From: a virus | Lineage: Duplodnaviria > Heunggongvirae > Uroviricota > Caudoviricetes | Reading direction: 5' to 3' (one strand) | IMG/VR virus record: IMGVR_UViG_2548876954_000010 | Span: 1-30,963 of that record | Length of the DNA: 30,963 bases | In this document: in pieces, positions 4,489 to 20,869 of the stretch | Numbering within the stretch: position 1 is the stretch's first letter | Layout: the number at the start of each line of letters is the position of its first letter | Notes under the pieces: generated by a model | Databases searched by the model: none | What the model saw: the letters and a program-made list of their open reading frames with translations, nothing else | What the model was told of the DNA's origin: nothing | Made by a program: the position numbers and the translations under genes

Positions 4489-6711
4489 TTGGCTGTTCAA
4501 TTCGCTTATCCGTGGAATGCTCCACGATCGGCTATAGCCAGCCCATACCTTACTTATAAGCAACAGCATCGCCGCGACCGTATGTTCGCGGCGATGCTGC
4601 ATGCTAAAAAGGTGCTTTCTCTCCAGCCCGACTGCGTGCGGTTAGATGTTTATCGCACTGCGGCAGTGCTGGAGCAAAATCAGGGCATTCAACGAGCCAA
4701 TGCCTTTTTGATCAGCTTCTGCAAAAAGGCATTGCCGCGTCTTGAATTGGTCGCAAAAAAATACGAATGCGCGGGTATCAACAGCAAGGTATCAACCTCT
4801 GTTTTTGGAAGTCATTTTGATACCCAGCTTATGCAATATCTGGCGTCACGCATGGTTAATATGGTCGCCCGATATAACCGCCTCCCGGATATGTCGCGCG
4901 CTGATGTTGACCTGTTGGCCGCCGATATTGCTAATTTCATTCGTGGTGAACTTGCCAACATTAATGACCACGGATTCGGCGAGCTTAAAACGCTGTACAC
5001 CTGGTATAATCGTGCTGGCTTTATTTCCCTCCAGTTCAACGTTATCCCCCCCCATTGGGATCGGGTTGCAAAAAAATATGTTGGCGCGGATGAAATCGCA
5101 CCGGCTATCGCCAAGATGTTTAACGATGGGTGGTGGCGTGGTCGTTTGCGCCGGGTTGCAGCTACGTGGCGCGAACACCTGCAAATTGCAGTCGGCAACG
5201 TCAGCAAGAAAAAAAACACCTATGCGAGTAAAAACTGCGTGACTGACTGGCGTGAACAAAAGCGCCGAACTCGTGAATTTCTCAAAGGTCTGGATCTCGA
5301 AGACGAAGACGGCAACCGTATCAGCCTGATTGAAAAATATGATGGCTCAGTTGCTAACCCTGCGATTCGCCGCTGTGAGCTCATGACTCGCATTCGTGGG
5401 TTTGAAAACATCTGTAATGAGCTCGGTTATGTCGGTGAGTTTTACACTCTGACCGCGCCGTCGAAATATCACGCCACGACTAAAGCCGGTTACCGTAACA
5501 GCAAATGGAGCGGTGCCAGCCCGGCTGACACGCAAAACTATCTAACTGATATCTGGGCGCGTATCCGTGCCAAACTGCATCGGGAAGATGTCCGTATTTT
5601 CGGTATTCGTGTCGCCGAGCCCCATCACGACGGTACTCCACACTGGCACATGCTGATGTTCATGCTGCCGGAAGATGTTGAATATGTTCGCTCCATCGTC
5701 CGTAAATACGCGTGGAAAGAAGACCGCCGCGAACTGAAAAGCGATAAGGCAAAAAAAGCACGTTTCCACGCCGAGTCCATTGACCCGGAGAAAGGCAGCG
5801 CAACCGGCTATGTTGCTAAATACATATCAAAAAATATCGACGGTTATGCTCTCGATGGTGAAACCGATGATGAAAGCGGTGAACTGCTGAAAGAGACAGC
5901 CCCCGCCGTTTCAGCATGGGCTTCGCGCTGGCACATCCGTCAGTTTCAGTTTATCGGTGGTGCGCCGGTGACGGTTTACCGTGAGTTGCGTCGCCTCGCT
6001 GATACCGAAACCGCGCACGGACTGAGCGTTGAGTTTGCCGCCGTCCATGATGCCGCCGACGCTGGTGACTGGGCTGGTTATGTTAATGCGCAGGGTGGAC
6101 CGTTTGTCCGTCGCGATGATTTACAGGTGCGCACACTGTATGAACCACGTACCGAGCTTAATCAGTACGGTGAGGAAACGGTATGTATTAAGGGGGTCTA
6201 CGATTCCTCCATAGGTGCAGGTAGCCCGATTTTAACCCGGCTCACTCAGTGGAAGATTGTTCCGAAGCATGCTGTTGATTTGGCCGTTGACCTTCAGGAC
6301 GGCAAAGCCGTCCCTCGGAGTTCTGTCAATAACTGTACGGGAAGCGAAAACGCTCCACCGGTACTGGATTTGACAAAGCCCCTGAGTCGACGCGAAAGAC
6401 GAGAGCTAACCAACCGACTCAGGAAGCAAAAATCAGCAATACGGCGAAAGTTCAGCCACGGAACGGATGAGCAAAACGCAGCTATAGCTAAAACTATCGA
6501 CGAGATACAACTGACAACCGGCATTACAATCAGCCGGAGCGAAGCCCTGCACCTGATGGCCGGTGGTAAAAGTTGTTTTGATGGCAAATGGCTACGCGGA
6601 ACGGCCAAAGGGGAAATATTTTCCGCAGCACCATCGCATGAGGCTAAAGCTCGGAAAATCCTTAATCGTGTTGCGGCGATGGCTGAATCATCAAAACCAA
6701 CACATGAGTAA
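4489..6711 (+). CDS. A: Rolling-circle replication initiator endonuclease (P2 gpA family)
   Basis: 740-aa ORF. Contains the HUH-like motif region (EPHHDGTPHWHMLMF) and paired tyrosines in GYVAKYISKNIDGYAL. Codon at 4489 is TTG; the first in-frame ATG is at 4582, so the exact start is uncertain. Confidence 0.9.
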   Translation: MAVQFAYPWNAPRSAIASPYLTYKQQHRRDRMFAAMLHAKKVLSLQPDCVRLDVYRTAAVLEQNQGIQRANAFLISFCKKALPRLELVAKKYECAGINSKVSTSVFGSHFDTQLMQYLASRMVNMVARYNRLPDMSRADVDLLAADIANFIRGELANINDHGFGELKTLYTWYNRAGFISLQFNVIPPHWDRVAKKYVGADEIAPAIAKMFNDGWWRGRLRRVAATWREHLQIAVGNVSKKKNTYASKNCVTDWREQKRRTREFLKGLDLEDEDGNRISLIEKYDGSVANPAIRRCELMTRIRGFENICNELGYVGEFYTLTAPSKYHATTKAGYRNSKWSGASPADTQNYLTDIWARIRAKLHREDVRIFGIRVAEPHHDGTPHWHMLMFMLPEDVEYVRSIVRKYAWKEDRRELKSDKAKKARFHAESIDPEKGSATGYVAKYISKNIDGYALDGETDDESGELLKETAPAVSAWASRWHIRQFQFIGGAPVTVYRELRRLADTETAHGLSVEFAAVHDAADAGDWAGYVNAQGGPFVRRDDLQVRTLYEPRTELNQYGEETVCIKGVYDSSIGAGSPILTRLTQWKIVPKHAVDLAVDLQDGKAVPRSSVNNCTGSENAPPVLDLTKPLSRRERRELTNRLRKQKSAIRRKFSHGTDEQNAAIAKTIDEIQLTTGITISRSEALHLMAGGKSCFDGKWLRGTAKGEIFSAAPSHEAKARKILNRVAAMAESSKPTHE

Positions 6712-8796: not shown

Positions 8797-9624
8797 ATGA
8801 CTGGTGTTGTGAATTACGATGTGGTTATCAGGAGTGGTGATCAGCCCGTTGATATGGATTATGCGCTGGAAACGTTAGGCGGAGCATCGGAAGTTACCTG
8901 TTTACTAGCAGAAGCAATCCTACAAAAAAAAGTCGTTAAAAGAAGAAGTCCTGCTAATAAAGCGCGAGCAGTTTTACATCAGAGCTTCCCGAGTTCTTAT
9001 GGACAAAACTTTGCGTTAGCTATAGATGACCCAATATTAAAAGCTCGTTTAGTTGAAATAACCAACCCTGTACTTGCGGAAATTATGGGATTTTACATAT
9101 CTGAAGCTATGTATATACAACCTCCGGCTTTATCAGCACGAGCCAGACATTATATTGAAGAGCTTGAATATCTTGAAGATGAAATTATAAGCCGTATTCG
9201 GAATCCTTTAATACGCATGCACAAAATTAATTACCGTCGCAACTGGGATATTGATTTCAATTTTAAACCTGATGGTAGACAAAGAAAAATAGTGACTTTA
9301 AATACTAGGACTGCAGCAAATCTAACTCACACAACGGTTGAAAGGGAAAGATTTAATATAATTGCAATGGTTACAAGATTCAACTCTCGTACAGGTAATG
9401 GCCGTTTAGTGCTACAAGATGAGGACGAGACTGTTGCTTTTGGTTTTGCCAACCAATTAGGAATGGTTCCGTCCGCACAGAAAAGAATGATTTCTTTGAA
9501 TCTACATAATAATAATGGAAGATCCGATAATTACATATATCTTAGTATGACTGTCAGTAGGGTTGTAATTATGAGCGGTGAGACTGTAAAATATGCAGTA
9601 CACTCTGTGCGTGTATTGGAATAA
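8797..9624 (+). CDS. Hypothetical soluble 275-aa protein, first gene of an AT-rich two-gene cargo cassette
   Basis: ORF with AAGGG RBS. Markedly AT-rich compared with the flanking phage backbone. No TM segment or catalytic motif I can recognise. Its stop (9622-9624) is 2 nt from the next start. Confidence 0.7.
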   Translation: MTGVVNYDVVIRSGDQPVDMDYALETLGGASEVTCLLAEAILQKKVVKRRSPANKARAVLHQSFPSSYGQNFALAIDDPILKARLVEITNPVLAEIMGFYISEAMYIQPPALSARARHYIEELEYLEDEIISRIRNPLIRMHKINYRRNWDIDFNFKPDGRQRKIVTLNTRTAANLTHTTVERERFNIIAMVTRFNSRTGNGRLVLQDEDETVAFGFANQLGMVPSAQKRMISLNLHNNNGRSDNYIYLSMTVSRVVIMSGETVKYAVHSVRVLE

Positions 9625-9626
9625 GT

Positions 9627-10376
9627 ATGAATAGAATTAAGTGCATATGTGGGTTGATACTAGCTGCTGCTTGGGCAGCGTACTATCTTCATTTTGGCAT
9701 AGACGGAAGCCTCTCCCAAAAAACTGAAGTTTGGGGACAGTTTGGCGACTACGTAGGTGGGGTGGTCAACCCCATTTTAAGTTTTATAACCATATATCTA
9801 CTTATTAACTCAATAGGGTTACAGCGCGAATCTAATGAAAGCTTAACCAATGAAATAAAAAGACAAGAGAAGCTAGAGGAATATAAAAAATTTGAGCTAC
9901 GATTCTTTCGCTTGATTGAATCGCAGGAGGAAAACTTCAGTCGTTTTAAAATATGTATATCACAACAGGATGATGATGAGCAAAATGTTGATGAACAGTT
10001 AGAAAAAACAGATGAAATATTGAGTGGTGGAGCAGCAGTAACATTCATTGAAGATTGTTTGTTACCCCTCAAAGAGGCTGGAGTTAGCAAGGAGCGTGTA
10101 TTCCATTGGTTAGATAGTTTGGATGATGATGGATCATTTTTTTCATTAGTAAGACGTTTCTATCTCATTCTCAAATTAGTCGATGCCAATACACTTACAA
10201 AAAGCGAGAGAGATGAAATGTATGAAACGTTGATTAATCTTACTGATATTAAAGTAATTAGCATCATTGCAATCTTGAGTTTGCATTATGATTGGTACGC
10301 AATCAAATACATTAAGGCAACAAAAATTCTTGACAAGGAAGGAGTTAGGGAATTCGTTGAAATGTATAAAATTTAA
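9627..10376 (+). CDS. Hypothetical membrane protein (two N-terminal TM helices plus acidic cytoplasmic domain), second gene of the cassette
   Basis: N-terminus has two hydrophobic helices (ICGLILAAAWAAYYLHF and VGGVVNPILSFITIYLLINSIGL). The rest is charged and Asp/Glu-rich. AT-rich, closely spaced after the upstream gene, followed by a terminator. Confidence 0.7.
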   Translation: MNRIKCICGLILAAAWAAYYLHFGIDGSLSQKTEVWGQFGDYVGGVVNPILSFITIYLLINSIGLQRESNESLTNEIKRQEKLEEYKKFELRFFRLIESQEENFSRFKICISQQDDDEQNVDEQLEKTDEILSGGAAVTFIEDCLLPLKEAGVSKERVFHWLDSLDDDGSFFSLVRRFYLILKLVDANTLTKSERDEMYETLINLTDIKVISIIAILSLHYDWYAIKYIKATKILDKEGVREFVEMYKI

Positions 10377-18291: not shown

Positions 18292-18721
18292 CGCCGTGCC
18301 GCAGCTCCGAAACAACCCCGATATGCTGCGCCTTTTTGCCGACAACGGCCATACCGATTCCCGATTGGCGAGCTCGCTGTCGTTTGAAAAAGTGTACGTG
18401 CTTAACGTGGTGGTGACCGACTTCACCGGCGACCTTGATTTGATATTCGTGCCGGTGCAGGCGTGGCTGCGCGAACATCAGCCGGACATTATGACCACCG
18501 ACGACGGACGGGAAAAAGGATTCACCTGGATTATTGATATCAATAACGACGATTCGCTCGATATCAGTATCAGCCTGAGGCTCACCGAGCGCACGCTCGT
18601 CAAAGAGGTCGACGGCGCGCTGCATGTCAGCTATGCCCCTGAGCCGCCGCTGCCTGAGCCGGTGACGCGCCCGGTCGAGCTGTACGTTAACGGCGAACTG
18701 GTGAGTAAGTGGGATGAGTGA
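18245..18721 (+). CDS. R: Tail completion protein (P2 gpR family)
   Basis: 158-aa ORF after the lysis genes. Start may be 18245 or 18254. Confidence 0.8.
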   Translation: MNSMQKHKSLRKALINAVPQLRNNPDMLRLFADNGHTDSRLASSLSFEKVYVLNVVVTDFTGDLDLIFVPVQAWLREHQPDIMTTDDGREKGFTWIIDINNDDSLDISISLRLTERTLVKEVDGALHVSYAPEPPLPEPVTRPVELYVNGELVSKWDE

Positions 18722-19169
18722 GTTAACCGCACTGCAGGAACGCCTTGCCGGTCTGATTGCCAGCCTGTCACCGGCGGCGCGTCGGCAAATGGCGGCTGAG
18801 ATTGCGAAAAAGCTGCGTACCAGTCAGCAACAGCGTATCAAGCGCCAGCAGGCACCCGACGGCACCCCGTATGCGGCACGAAAGCGCCAGCCGGTGCGGA
18901 GCAAGAAAGGTCGGATTAAACGTGAAATGTTCGCCAAACTGCGCACCAGTCGCTTTATGAAAGCCAAAGGCAGCGACAGTGCGGCGGTGGTGGAGTTTAC
19001 CGGCAAGGTGCAGCGCATGGCGCGGGTGCATCAGTATGGGCTCAAAGACAGACCAAACCGCAACAGCCGGGATGTGCAGTACGAGGCGCGCCCGTTGCTC
19101 GGATACTCTTCATCAGACTTACAAAAAGTTGAGAGTTTAATTATGGATGCTTTATGTCAACGCCATTGA
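18714..19169 (+). CDS. S: Tail completion / virion morphogenesis protein (P2 gpS family)
   Basis: 151-aa ORF overlapping the R end, basic central region. Order R-S as in P2. Confidence 0.8.
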   Translation: MSELTALQERLAGLIASLSPAARRQMAAEIAKKLRTSQQQRIKRQQAPDGTPYAARKRQPVRSKKGRIKREMFAKLRTSRFMKAKGSDSAAVVEFTGKVQRMARVHQYGLKDRPNRNSRDVQYEARPLLGYSSSDLQKVESLIMDALCQRH

Positions 19170-19259
19170 CTTTGGATTCGCTGAGAATTACTATATATCT
19201 CAGCGATAGAGGTAGACTGGTGTCTAGGTGGGCGTGCCCACTGAGTTGGGTTCGATTCC

Positions 19260-20096
19260 CTAACCTCGTATTATTCCTCTCGATATTTTTATTGCTGGGT
19301 TTTCCTTTCTTATTTCATTTTTAATTTGCTCATCACAAATTAAATAATCTATGTTTTTTGCTTTAACAAGTTCTTTAACGCTAATGTTAATTGAATTTAA
19401 TAGATTTGCATTCCGCATGTTAGCCCCTTCATAAGTAACGGATTTAAAATCACATCCTTTTAATATGCAGCTTTTCATTTCGCTATCTGTAAAATACCCC
19501 CCTTCAAAACTGCAGTTTTCGAAAGTAACATTTTGAAAACGTGTATTAAATGCCTTAATATTTCTTAGCTTGCAGTTTTTGAATTTAACACTCTTAACTC
19601 TATTGCCTGTAATATTTAGAGCTTGAATTGTGCAATTATCGAAAGAACAATCTCTAATGTATGATTCGCTCATATTCAAGCCGGTTAAGTCAGCGTCTTT
19701 AAAATGTAAGTATTTGATAGTGGACATTTTATCAAGTTCAATCCTTGGAACTTGAATGTTATATATTCCTTTGGCATTTAACTGACGTATGATTTTTATC
19801 TTCATAATATTCAGTTCTGCAGAAGAATGCTTTGCCAGATTTTCAAGATCTTCAATTAGTTCGTGAATAGCATCTTTATTTTGCCTTTTATTTTCAAAAT
19901 AGTAAAGGATCACACCCAAAACAAGAAAGTCTAAAATTGAAGAATTTGCATTAACAAGAAAATTCTCCATGAATTTTGAGTTGTAGTTATCATTATAAAC
20001 AGACAACCCTACTATAAGCCCGGAGTATAAAAAAAAGATACCTATAATATATTTCATATTGCTTATTGTACGCCTAAAAGATGAAGTTCTTTTCAT
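19260..20096 (-). CDS. Membrane-anchored pentapeptide-repeat protein (moron, antisense to the late operon)
   Basis: Minus-strand ORF. Start taken at MKRTSS (20094-20096), with 20141 also possible. Two N-terminal hydrophobic helices (YIIGIFFLYSGLIVGLSV, ILDFLVLGVILYYF), then ~20 tandem pentapeptide repeats (CSFDN CTIQA LNITG NRVKS VKFKN CKLRN IKAFN TRFQN VTFEN CSFEG ...). Very AT-rich against a GC-rich backbone. Confidence 0.7.
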   Translation of the reverse strand: MKRTSSFRRTISNMKYIIGIFFLYSGLIVGLSVYNDNYNSKFMENFLVNANSSILDFLVLGVILYYFENKRQNKDAIHELIEDLENLAKHSSAELNIMKIKIIRQLNAKGIYNIQVPRIELDKMSTIKYLHFKDADLTGLNMSESYIRDCSFDNCTIQALNITGNRVKSVKFKNCKLRNIKAFNTRFQNVTFENCSFEGGYFTDSEMKSCILKGCDFKSVTYEGANMRNANLLNSINISVKELVKAKNIDYLICDEQIKNEIRKENPAIKISRGIIRG

Positions 20097-20233
20097 TACT
20101 ACCTGCCATATGTTTTGTGTGATTTTCGAATGAGTCAACACTCAAATGATACATGAATGCACACCGAATTGTGTAGAAGAGCATACAGCTGAATCGTTTT
20201 GCTCTTGGCTTTAACAATCGGCATTCTTTGTTC

Positions 20234-20869
20234 ATGAACACATTAAACACCATTCAAGAGTTAGCACGTGCCATTCGCAACCTCATCCGCTCAGGCGTGG
20301 TGACTGAGGTCGATACTGTGCAGGGGCTGTGCCGCGTACAAAGCGGCGGGATCCAGACTACATGGCTGAACTGGCTGACCACCCGCGCCGGTCGTTCGCG
20401 GACGTGGTGGGCTCCCTCGGTCGGTGAGCAGGTTCTGCTGCTGGCAATCGGTGGCGAGCTTGATACCGCTTTCGTGCTGCCGGGTATTTTCTCCGACGAT
20501 AACCCCGCCCCCTCTGCCTCGGAGGATGCGTGGCATGTGGTTTTCCCTGATGGTGCGGTCATTGAGTACGAGCCCGAGACCAGTGCGCTGACGGTCAGCG
20601 GCATCAAAACGGCCGACGTGACAACATCGGAGTCCATCACCGCAACCGTGCCGCTGGTACTGGTGAAAGCCTCGACCAGTATCACCCTCGACACCCCTGA
20701 GGTGATTTGCACCAATAAGCTGACGACGGCGACGCTTGAGGTGCAAAAGGGCGGCACGATGAAAGGCAACATCGAGCATACCGGCGGGTCACTGTCGTCT
20801 AACGGCAAGATACTCCACACCCATAAACACCCCGGCGACAGCGGCGGGCAAACGGGGGCTCCGTTATGA
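20234..20869 (+). CDS. V: Baseplate spike / assembly protein (P2 gpV family)
   Basis: Start at MNTLNTIQELARAIRNL (ATG 20234); 211 aa. Position before W-J-I as in P2. Confidence 0.85.
   Translation: MNTLNTIQELARAIRNLIRSGVVTEVDTVQGLCRVQSGGIQTTWLNWLTTRAGRSRTWWAPSVGEQVLLLAIGGELDTAFVLPGIFSDDNPAPSASEDAWHVVFPDGAVIEYEPETSALTVSGIKTADVTTSESITATVPLVLVKASTSITLDTPEVICTNKLTTATLEVQKGGTMKGNIEHTGGSLSSNGKILHTHKHPGDSGGQTGAPL

Follow-up and report, generated by a model that had tools for sequence, protein, structure and literature searches.

The DNA analysed here, IMG/VR record IMGVR_UViG_2548876954_000010 (positions 1 to 30,963; the whole stretch of 30,963 nucleotides is called the window), is a near-complete 186-like prophage of the P2 family. 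Between its homologues of gene S (tail completion) and gene V (baseplate) lies an insert of about 1.06 kb that holds two convergent genes, a minus-strand gene for a membrane-anchored pentapeptide-repeat protein (19260-20096) and, at its 3' end, a plus-strand gene for a predicted tRNA-like RNA (core 19205-19273). By comparing related loci at the sequence level, we show that both predicted genes exist, that each has its own putative promoter, and that the two are strictly co-inherited across deep divergence and in different prophage contexts.

A tRNA-like RNA gene converges on the protein gene

Every enterobacterial locus has a conserved block of about 110 nt that lies downstream of the protein gene and overlaps its stop codon. 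The sigma-70 promoter predicted for the plus strand (19166-19194) consists of a -35 element TTGACT (19166-19171), which overlaps the stop codon TGA of S (19167-19169), a 17-nt spacer and a -10 element TACTAT (19189-19194). Among the variants the -35 element is invariant as TTGAC[T/A/G] and the spacer keeps its length of 17 nt, its sequence being free to diverge. Of 15 close variants, 14 retain A2 and T6 of the -10 element, and the deep branches show this layout too. The conserved core begins about 12 nt past the -10 element.

This core of about 70 nt (19205-19273, plus strand) is predicted to fold into a cloverleaf and scores 80.7 bits against the covariance model described below (E = 3e-18). 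An acceptor-like stem of 5 bp pairs GAGGT (19209-19213) with ACCTC (19263-19267) and encloses a mini D-arm (19214-19225; loop TGGT, with the GG kept), a middle hairpin (19228-19241) and a T-arm (19246-19262; loop TTCGATT), the latter preceded by a variable region of 2-5 nt. The middle hairpin ranges from 5 to 10 bp across variants, and since its loop is unconstrained (CGTG, GTTA, CTTG, GAAA or 7 nt), it is not an anticodon arm. The T-arm, which reads GGTTCGATTCC or GGTTCAATTCC, and the GG of the D-loop are invariant or nearly so among 23 variants.

The element shares with tRNAs the T-arm and the GG of the D-loop. It has neither a 7-nt anticodon loop nor a 7-bp acceptor stem (5 bp were found), it encodes no CCA, and ARAGORN reported no tRNA in the window or in 10 loci. 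No Rfam family matched; the best score was that of tRNA-Sec with 24 bits in a single variant, compared to a gathering threshold of 47. RefSeq carries no annotation at the element. A generic-repeat artefact was considered as the source of the element and was excluded.

Selection acts on the RNA fold

RNAalifold applied to a raw MAFFT alignment returned only fragments of the structure due to misaligned indels, and a covariance model (R1, built from 16 variants) and a curated alignment of 23 variants were therefore used. The covariance model finds exactly one match per locus, always antisense to the gene, and finds nothing in the orf30 region of P2 or beside two distant relatives of the protein gene. 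In its alignment 83.7% of the cells are paired, compared to 45-55% with slid partners, compensatory changes occur in nine pairs, and the covariation score was reached by none of 500 shuffles. The curated alignment gave 94.1% paired cells (44-54% when slid) and 80 double-change cells (1-19 in the comparison), with a covariation score of 0.528 against at most 0.109, again reached by none of 500 shuffles. Compensatory changes were seen in 13 of its 19 pairs, including all five acceptor and all five middle-arm pairs, and they are present in all four helices. Unconstrained minimum free energy (MFE) folds of divergent copies yielded the same cloverleaf from entirely different stem sequences, as in the acceptor stems GGAGU/ACUCC, GGCA/UGCC, GAGGC/GCCUC and AAGCU/AGCUU. 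With regard to the strand, 16 G.U were counted against 7 A.C, which favours the plus strand.

Where the RNA gene and the coding sequence overlap, the same DNA is read in various ways. It provides the stop codon in the window, is read through in the same frame in some relatives (...GIEPNSVGKPT) and is read in another frame elsewhere (...EVRESNPTQ), so that the protein tails of these relatives arise by translation into the RNA gene, where the stop codon is lost or a different frame is used. Because the overlap is read in different frames and with different stops, the constraint on this DNA is not on the protein. The covariation thus shows that the predicted RNA fold is under selection.

Gene and RNA are inherited as a pair

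The RNA was found in every enterobacterial locus that carries the gene, over a range of protein identities of 27.6-100%. Each of the deeper branches, in which the proteins are 27.6-42% identical to that of the window, has a divergent RNA copy in the same place and orientation. Pattern scans that used only the RNA hit gene-bearing contigs exclusively (7 of 7 viral contigs in IMG/VR and 4 of 4 metagenomic contigs). Among 5426 complete E. coli genomes, gene and RNA occur in the same 14, with one insert per genome and always on the chromosome.

Most family members occupy the S/V slot of P2-like prophages in antisense orientation, the hosts being Escherichia, Enterobacter, Salmonella and Yersinia. 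The pair was also found at the cargo edge of other prophages, beside umuDC, DinI and an SRAP protein. As gene and RNA occur together in such varied prophage contexts, the pair moves as a unit.

Three further observations were made at related loci. In a non-P2 prophage (locus L039, 4400-5239), the cassette adjoins a gene with an Abi_C domain and umuDC, an arrangement that resembles a small cluster of defence and SOS cargo. A divergent cassette with 34% protein identity (locus L047, 1-129 and 387-1305) lies about 260 nt from the SdsR/RyeB-SraC/RyeA locus, which was identified with Rfam scores of 99.5 and 122.7 bits and which we take to be a site where foreign DNA tends to insert in Salmonella. 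Lastly, the 14-nt segment CGAGGTTAGGGAAT occurs three times in tandem in a P2-like prophage of Enterobacter cloacae (L017, 4819-4862; also L026 and L034). In the sense of the RNA it comprises the 3' half of the T-loop and the 3' strands of the T-stem and of the acceptor stem, and its first copy supplies the stop codon of the protein. Slippage and repeated recombination at the tRNA-like site are both possible origins of the triplication.

The protein combines a transmembrane hairpin with a pentapeptide beta-helix

The protein gene (19260-20096, minus strand) encodes 278 amino acids (aa) and matches phrog_12514 (E = 6.6e-142), a family of unknown function. The open reading frame (ORF) extends from 19260 to 20141, and an alternative GTG start at 20141 would yield 293 aa. 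The ATG at 20096 is the annotated start in ON470592 (vB_EcoM-613R3), the sole phage record with the gene, where it is labelled 'YjcF'. The stop codon TAG (19260-19262) falls within the T-arm of the convergent RNA. Upstream of the gene, a promoter-like site on the minus strand (20146-20175) comprises a -35 element TACACA (20175-20170), an 18-nt spacer and a -10 element TATCAT (20151-20146). ACACA and the -10 element (TATAAT, TGTAAT) are kept in four independent contexts.

Hydropathy analysis predicts a hairpin of two transmembrane (TM) helices (19899-20057), TM1 at aa 14-35 and TM2 at aa 45-66. It is followed by a helical linker, predicted to be cytoplasmic (aa 67-117; 19746-19898), which is part of the conserved N-terminal module, by the pentapeptide beta-helix (aa 118-240; 19377-19745) with about 24 repeats in about six coils, and by C-terminal cap helices with a variable tail (aa 241-278; 19263-19376). 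Positive charge flanks the hairpin on both sides, predicting an N-in/C-in topology, and according to the positive-inside rule the beta-helix lies on the cytoplasmic face of the membrane. In TM2, the polar residues N49, N51, S52, S53 and D56 are invariant or nearly so, followed by G61 and a YY motif. In a sample of 150 superfamily members with a mean identity of just 12%, at least 90% retain D56. Many family members, with forms of 339 aa, have an N-terminal extension of about 60 aa before the hairpin.

The repeats were found by three Pfam pentapeptide families above their gathering thresholds at aa ∼127-235, namely PF13599 (61.8 bits; cutoff 38), PF13576 (41.5 bits; cutoff 27) and PF00805 (39.6 bits; cutoff 20.2), and about 24 contiguous pentapeptides are in register over aa 118-237. 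An AlphaFold2 model, computed with a multiple sequence alignment of 25 homologues, has a predicted local distance difference test score (pLDDT) of 86.6, with values above 90 in the repeats, and places helices at residues 15-34, 42-87 and 93-108, then the beta-helix and then two cap helices. In this model, and by its fold matches, the repeat domain is a right-handed quadrilateral beta-helix, the fold that AlbG, MfpA and Qnr also have. All 25 members examined have a net basic beta-helix (+1 to +7, pI 7.7-9.3; +4 and pI 8.8 in the window), a charge computed from the sequence and not from the surface.

The close family comprises 29 clusters from Klebsiella, Edwardsiella, Citrobacter, Enterobacter, Yersinia, Raoultella and Salmonella, and one from Paenibacillus (27% identity). 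An exhaustive HMMER search with a profile of the N-terminal module (aa 1-118) matched at least 714 representative clusters at 50% identity (E <= 1e-3). When the top 149 matches and the protein of the window were scanned, pentapeptide repeats were found in 140 of the 150 sequences and no other Pfam domain recurred. The members are from Enterobacterales and Firmicutes and are annotated solely as 'pentapeptide repeat-containing protein', and no sequence in the PDB matched the N-terminal profile. Judged by these profiles, the predicted combination of two TM helices, a helical linker and a pentapeptide beta-helix is the architecture of a widespread unnamed family. No HalB-like or other partner protein was found in the insert or in the Paenibacillus locus.

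An initial annotation of the window had described the product as a protein with two TM helices and pentapeptide repeats. The Pfam matches, the hydropathy and the AlphaFold2 model confirm this architecture with about 24 repeats, the hydropathy and flanking charge agree on two TM helices in N-in/C-in orientation, and the predicted structure is the quadrilateral beta-helix that was expected. Its suggestion that the gene might be expressed in the lysogen is compatible with the conserved sigma-70-like promoter on the minus strand. Membrane tethering of such a protein, which it had considered unusual, turned out not to be exceptional, since the family is widespread (at least 714 clusters, with repeats in 140 of the 150 scanned); HalA, too, is membrane-bound. 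DNA mimicry of the Qnr or McbG type, to which it had referred, is disfavoured by the basic beta-helix in 25 of 25 members and by scores of 28-30 bits for Qnr and MfpA against cutoffs of 240-360.

The insert occupies an inter-operon slot of P2-like phages

The GC content is 28-35% across 19200-20100, compared to 55-64% in the flanks. On the left lies the S homologue (18714-19169, plus strand; gene O of phage 186), which matches phrog_26 (E = 1.7e-48), and on the right the baseplate spike gene V (20234-20869, plus strand; phrog_6142 and phrog_9992), the ORF of which is listed from a TTG at 20228 and probably starts at the ATG at 20234. S is joined to V without an insert in phage 186, PSP3, EtG and about 80 other relatives; because most 186-like phages join the two genes directly, the DNA between S and V in the window is a true insertion. 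An alignment of the junction with phage 186 showed that the final ∼15 codons of the S homologue are already unlike those of 186 and that the drop in GC content begins at about 19100, and the phage backbone is back at ATTGTGT (∼20167) on the right. Since both the divergence and the GC drop start inside S, the sequence pattern suggests that the cassette may have been exchanged among P2-like phages by recombination within S rather than by precise insertion after it.

S/V has been described as one of three classic regions for morons in P2-like phages, and defence systems are known among P2's late genes. The insert has the character of such cargo, being foreign, nonessential DNA between S and V that is missing from close relatives. 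In the annotation of P2, the equivalent slot is flanked by the O-operon terminator on one side and by the V-operon activator site and promoter on the other. Its occupant there, orf30, is an antisense, nonessential gene that is unrelated to the gene of the window. As the slot in P2 separates the O and V operons, the insert fills a gap between operons and does not interrupt one. Upstream of V, a TGT-N12-ACA dyad (20170-20187, plus strand), read from the sequence, is a candidate late-activator site. We take it to be the expected Ogr/B-type site of the V-operon promoter, going by the consensus of P2 late promoters; the P2 annotation has an activator site at the equivalent position. The left half of this dyad is exactly complementary to the -35 element of the protein gene, TACACA on the minus strand. 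No convincing terminator was found after S.

The AT-rich antisense moron of about 1 kb between S and V that the initial annotation had noted is borne out by the GC contrast, the phrog matches of the flanks and the relatives without an insert. Its description of the insert as a single gene has to be corrected, as a conserved small-RNA gene lies on the plus strand, and so does its description of an interrupted operon, given the position of the P2 slot between the O-operon terminator and the V-operon promoter.

The remaining backbone of the window includes an integrase (173-1270), a CI repressor (1592-2428), the replication gene A (4489-6711), portal and terminase genes and the late genes as far as gpD. 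A second AT-rich cargo island (8797-10376, GC 35-37%) lies between gene A and the portal gene, which is the classic 'tin/old' defence hotspot of P2. Neither of its two plus-strand ORFs (275 and 249 aa) matches a Pfam family; for the second, PADLOC gives a weak ZorB/MotB-like match (E = 3e-4, aa 25-88).

A possible conflict module of the lysogen

The strictly co-inherited tRNA-like RNA, which had been overlooked in the initial annotation, changes the mechanism that is likely for this locus. The interpretation that we propose, and to which we give about an even chance, is that the cassette is a conflict module expressed in the lysogen, in which the RNA controls a membrane effector; this function we infer from the context and composition of the cassette. 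Its role could be anti-phage abortive infection or exclusion, or addiction. Superinfection exclusion in particular is possible, with nothing specific in its favour. A role in conflict is backed by the position of the cassette in a classic moron slot and by its being rare, patchy and AT-rich, and the idea of a nucleic-acid partner by the basic beta-helix in 25 of 25 members and by HalA as the best named match.

The effector would be the membrane protein, which might perturb the membrane after oligomerising via its polar TM2, and the RNA would be its regulator, antidote or sensor. Two modes of control can be envisaged. The folded RNA could bind to the basic beta-helix and hold the effector inactive, as oligo-dA does with HalA and as the antitoxins of type III systems do with their toxins. 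Alternatively, cis-antisense pairing and convergent transcription at the 3' end of the mRNA could curb the synthesis of the effector, in the manner of type I systems. We lean slightly towards direct binding, because selection appears to keep a tRNA-like three-dimensional shape, which would suit recognition by a protein and not base pairing. In the late phase of the prophage, transcription leaving S would run in the sense direction across the RNA gene and antisense to the protein gene, and such read-through would silence the effector while the prophage itself replicates. Binding of the late activator at the dyad could also occlude the promoter of the cargo.

A more specific version is that the RNA binds the beta-helix and keeps the effector off, as an RNA-gated counterpart of the DNA-gated Hailong system; this we regard as tentative and rather doubtful. 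Loss, cleavage, modification or sequestration of the RNA, induced by an infecting phage, would then free the effector and lead to depolarisation of the membrane. Such a system would need no enzyme that synthesises a signal, and the tRNA mimicry would serve as its sensor surface.

Several observations weigh against a conflict module under RNA control, or against parts of the evidence for it. The curated, N-padded alignment was fitted by hand to the structure and is therefore biased towards the fold; the counts from the covariance model and the independent MFE folds are free of this bias. The thermodynamic z-scores are modest and symmetric between the strands, and since they are strand-neutral, the strand is assigned from the promoter, the motifs of the T-loop and D-loop and the excess of G.U. 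The RNA core and the coding sequence share anything from 0 to about 36 nt, and the predicted pairing of the RNA with the translation start of its own mRNA showed no preference for the cognate partner (-22.4 compared to -21.6 kcal/mol); the two together weaken a simple antisense model. The N-terminal module contains no Pfam channel domain, and PADLOC has no model for the protein. Finally, family members without the RNA exist in ordinary chromosomal contexts, for example in Paenibacillus, so that the protein has no intrinsic requirement for the RNA and is not necessarily toxic.

The occurrence of distant relatives in ordinary chromosomal neighbourhoods would also fit lysogenic conversion without any phage conflict, in which the protein would be a sensor or adaptor of host physiology and the RNA an ordinary cis-antisense tuner. 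The family is large and unannotated, and no model of a defence database matches, which agrees with such a role. We nevertheless consider it unlikely, as all enterobacterial members examined are in cargo slots of prophages, several of them beside Abi_C or umuDC, and as the rarity and patchiness of the cassette (14 of 5426 genomes) are better suited to conflict genes. A membrane-tethered DNA mimic of the Qnr, MfpA or McbG type, acting in exclusion, by stopping the DNA of an incoming phage or DNA-handling proteins at the membrane, or in the protection of gyrase from toxins, with the RNA being incidental, could draw on the beta-helix fold shared with AlbG, MfpA and Qnr, on the membrane anchor and probable expression in the lysogen, and on the fact that P2 morons elsewhere are known as exclusion genes (fun(Z)). 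Since the beta-helix is basic in all 25 members, Qnr and MfpA reach only about one tenth of their cutoffs, and a strictly linked and structurally selected RNA would be left unexplained, we think such a role very unlikely.

The RNA itself might instead be the real cargo, a lone tRNA mimic that acts as a decoy or sponge for tRNA nucleases, modifying enzymes or RNase P, the protein being a separate passenger or merely supplying a 3' end. The T-loop/D-loop 'elbow' motifs, which are recognised by tRNA-binding proteins, are indeed invariant, and systems of defence and counter-defence that target tRNAs are known (PARIS). However, the RNA was found only together with the protein gene, and both have diverged in step to as little as ∼28% protein identity, which argues for functional coupling, and there is no anticodon loop with which a specific tRNA target could be mimicked; a lone RNA is thus quite unlikely. 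In tRNA genes, the stretch between the T-arm and the 3' end is a common target of integrases, and the element might accordingly be a DNA relic or recombination site, that is, the 3' part of a tRNA and former attachment (att) site of an integrase that is hitch-hiking. The 14-nt T-stem/acceptor 3' segment that one lineage has three times in tandem, and the failure of ARAGORN to see a functional tRNA, would be in line with this origin. An att remnant would not need the compensatory changes that include the 5' acceptor strand and the D-arm; a promoter is kept at a fixed distance, no integrase is adjacent and the slot is not a tRNA gene. We regard an origin of this kind as highly improbable.

Neither the tRNA-like RNA nor its obligate association with a HalA-like membrane pentapeptide protein seems to have been described before: the literature searched gave no account of such an RNA/protein pairing, and Rfam and RefSeq are likewise blank. 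The S/V slot and the beta-helix fold were already known, and the protein family is widespread and uncharacterised. For decades the slot has been known to hold cargo of unknown function, and one of its recurrent occupants is now seen to be a protein-plus-RNA unit. The covariation-backed RNA represents a new structured family that tRNA finders, Rfam and RefSeq have missed. If the RNA does control the effector, gating by nucleic acids would extend from enzymatically made DNA to encoded RNA, and the cassette of about 1 kb with two promoters would be a minimal, directly testable model. Irrespective of function, single-gene morons in phage hotspots may conceal non-coding partners.

Comparison with known systems

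P2 Orf30 resembles the insert in its slot, its antisense orientation, its AT-richness and its nature as nonessential cargo. It differs in sequence, with no homology between the proteins (BLASTP E = 0.37) and no match of the RNA model in the orf30 region. The predicted RNA is best compared to tRNA-like RNAs such as the tRNA-like domain of tmRNA, the bacterial Y-RNA-like YrlA and the stable RNAs C and D of phage T4, with which it shares a canonical T-arm and T-loop, a D-loop with GG and the lack of a decoding function. In contrast to these, it has a 5-bp acceptor stem and a plain hairpin in place of the anticodon arm, and it is dedicated to one protein family.

The layout of the pair recalls the type I toxin-antitoxin systems txpA/RatA and bsrG/SR4 of Bacillus prophages, the antitoxins of which are convergent antisense RNAs that overlap the toxin genes at their 3' ends. 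Here, too, a prophage gene for a membrane protein faces a predicted convergent RNA gene with its own promoter that overlaps or abuts its 3' end in all loci. However, the toxins of type I systems are shorter than 60 aa, whereas the protein of the window, at 278 aa and with a large folded domain in the cytoplasm, is no small peptide. The antitoxin RNAs of type I systems are not tRNA-shaped, and the overlap here comprises as little as 0-14 nt of coding sequence. As in the type III systems ToxIN and CptIN, a structured RNA could bind and neutralise the effector and release it when a phage perturbs RNA synthesis. The antitoxins of type III systems are tandem repeats that are encoded upstream on the same strand and processed by their endoribonuclease toxins, in contrast to the single cloverleaf on the opposite strand found here and a protein without a nuclease domain.

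Among pentapeptide-repeat proteins, Qnr, MfpA, AlbG and McbG are soluble, acidic and ∼180-220 aa in length, and MfpA and Qnr mimic DNA via their acidic surface. The protein of the window is membrane-anchored through two TM helices and basic by its sequence, which does not fit a soluble protein with an acidic DNA-like surface. Its scores against the NCBIfam models of Qnr and MfpA were 29.7 bits (cutoff 240) and 28.1 bits (cutoff 360), respectively, which places it in neither family. A SLATT domain was also considered and rejected: the 293-aa form matched the PADLOC model RTasSLATT with E = 6e-5, and only 1 of 25 members did so at E <= 0.01. Mycobacteriophage Sbash was dropped as a comparison, since the term pentapeptide does not occur in the paper on its defence.

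The best named match was HalA (NCBIfam NF051894; 46.1 bits, E = 3.8e-12, cutoff 250), in which only the repeats aligned, and the HalA structure PDB 9nyi was likewise matched through the repeats only. Going by secondary descriptions, the PDB title and the name of the NCBIfam model, HalA is the membrane pentapeptide effector of the recently solved anti-phage system Hailong, occurs on P2/P4-type elements and is kept inactive by a nucleic acid, oligo-dA, until infection. The domain order differs, as the HalA model has its repeats in the N-terminal part (24-130 of 338), whereas in the window they follow the TM hairpin. HalA contains a potassium-channel-like (IRK-type) membrane domain, and the protein of the window has no Pfam IRK match. 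Hailong further includes the nucleotidyltransferase HalB, whereas the insert has a single protein ORF, and no adjacent nucleotidyltransferase was found in the related loci examined. With scores below the cutoffs and neither HalB, IRK nor a robust SLATT match, the protein falls outside the Qnr, HalA and SLATT families. By analogy, HalA is nonetheless its nearest functional counterpart; the nucleic-acid partner of the Hailong effector is an enzymatically made DNA, whereas the candidate partner here is a structured RNA encoded in the genome.

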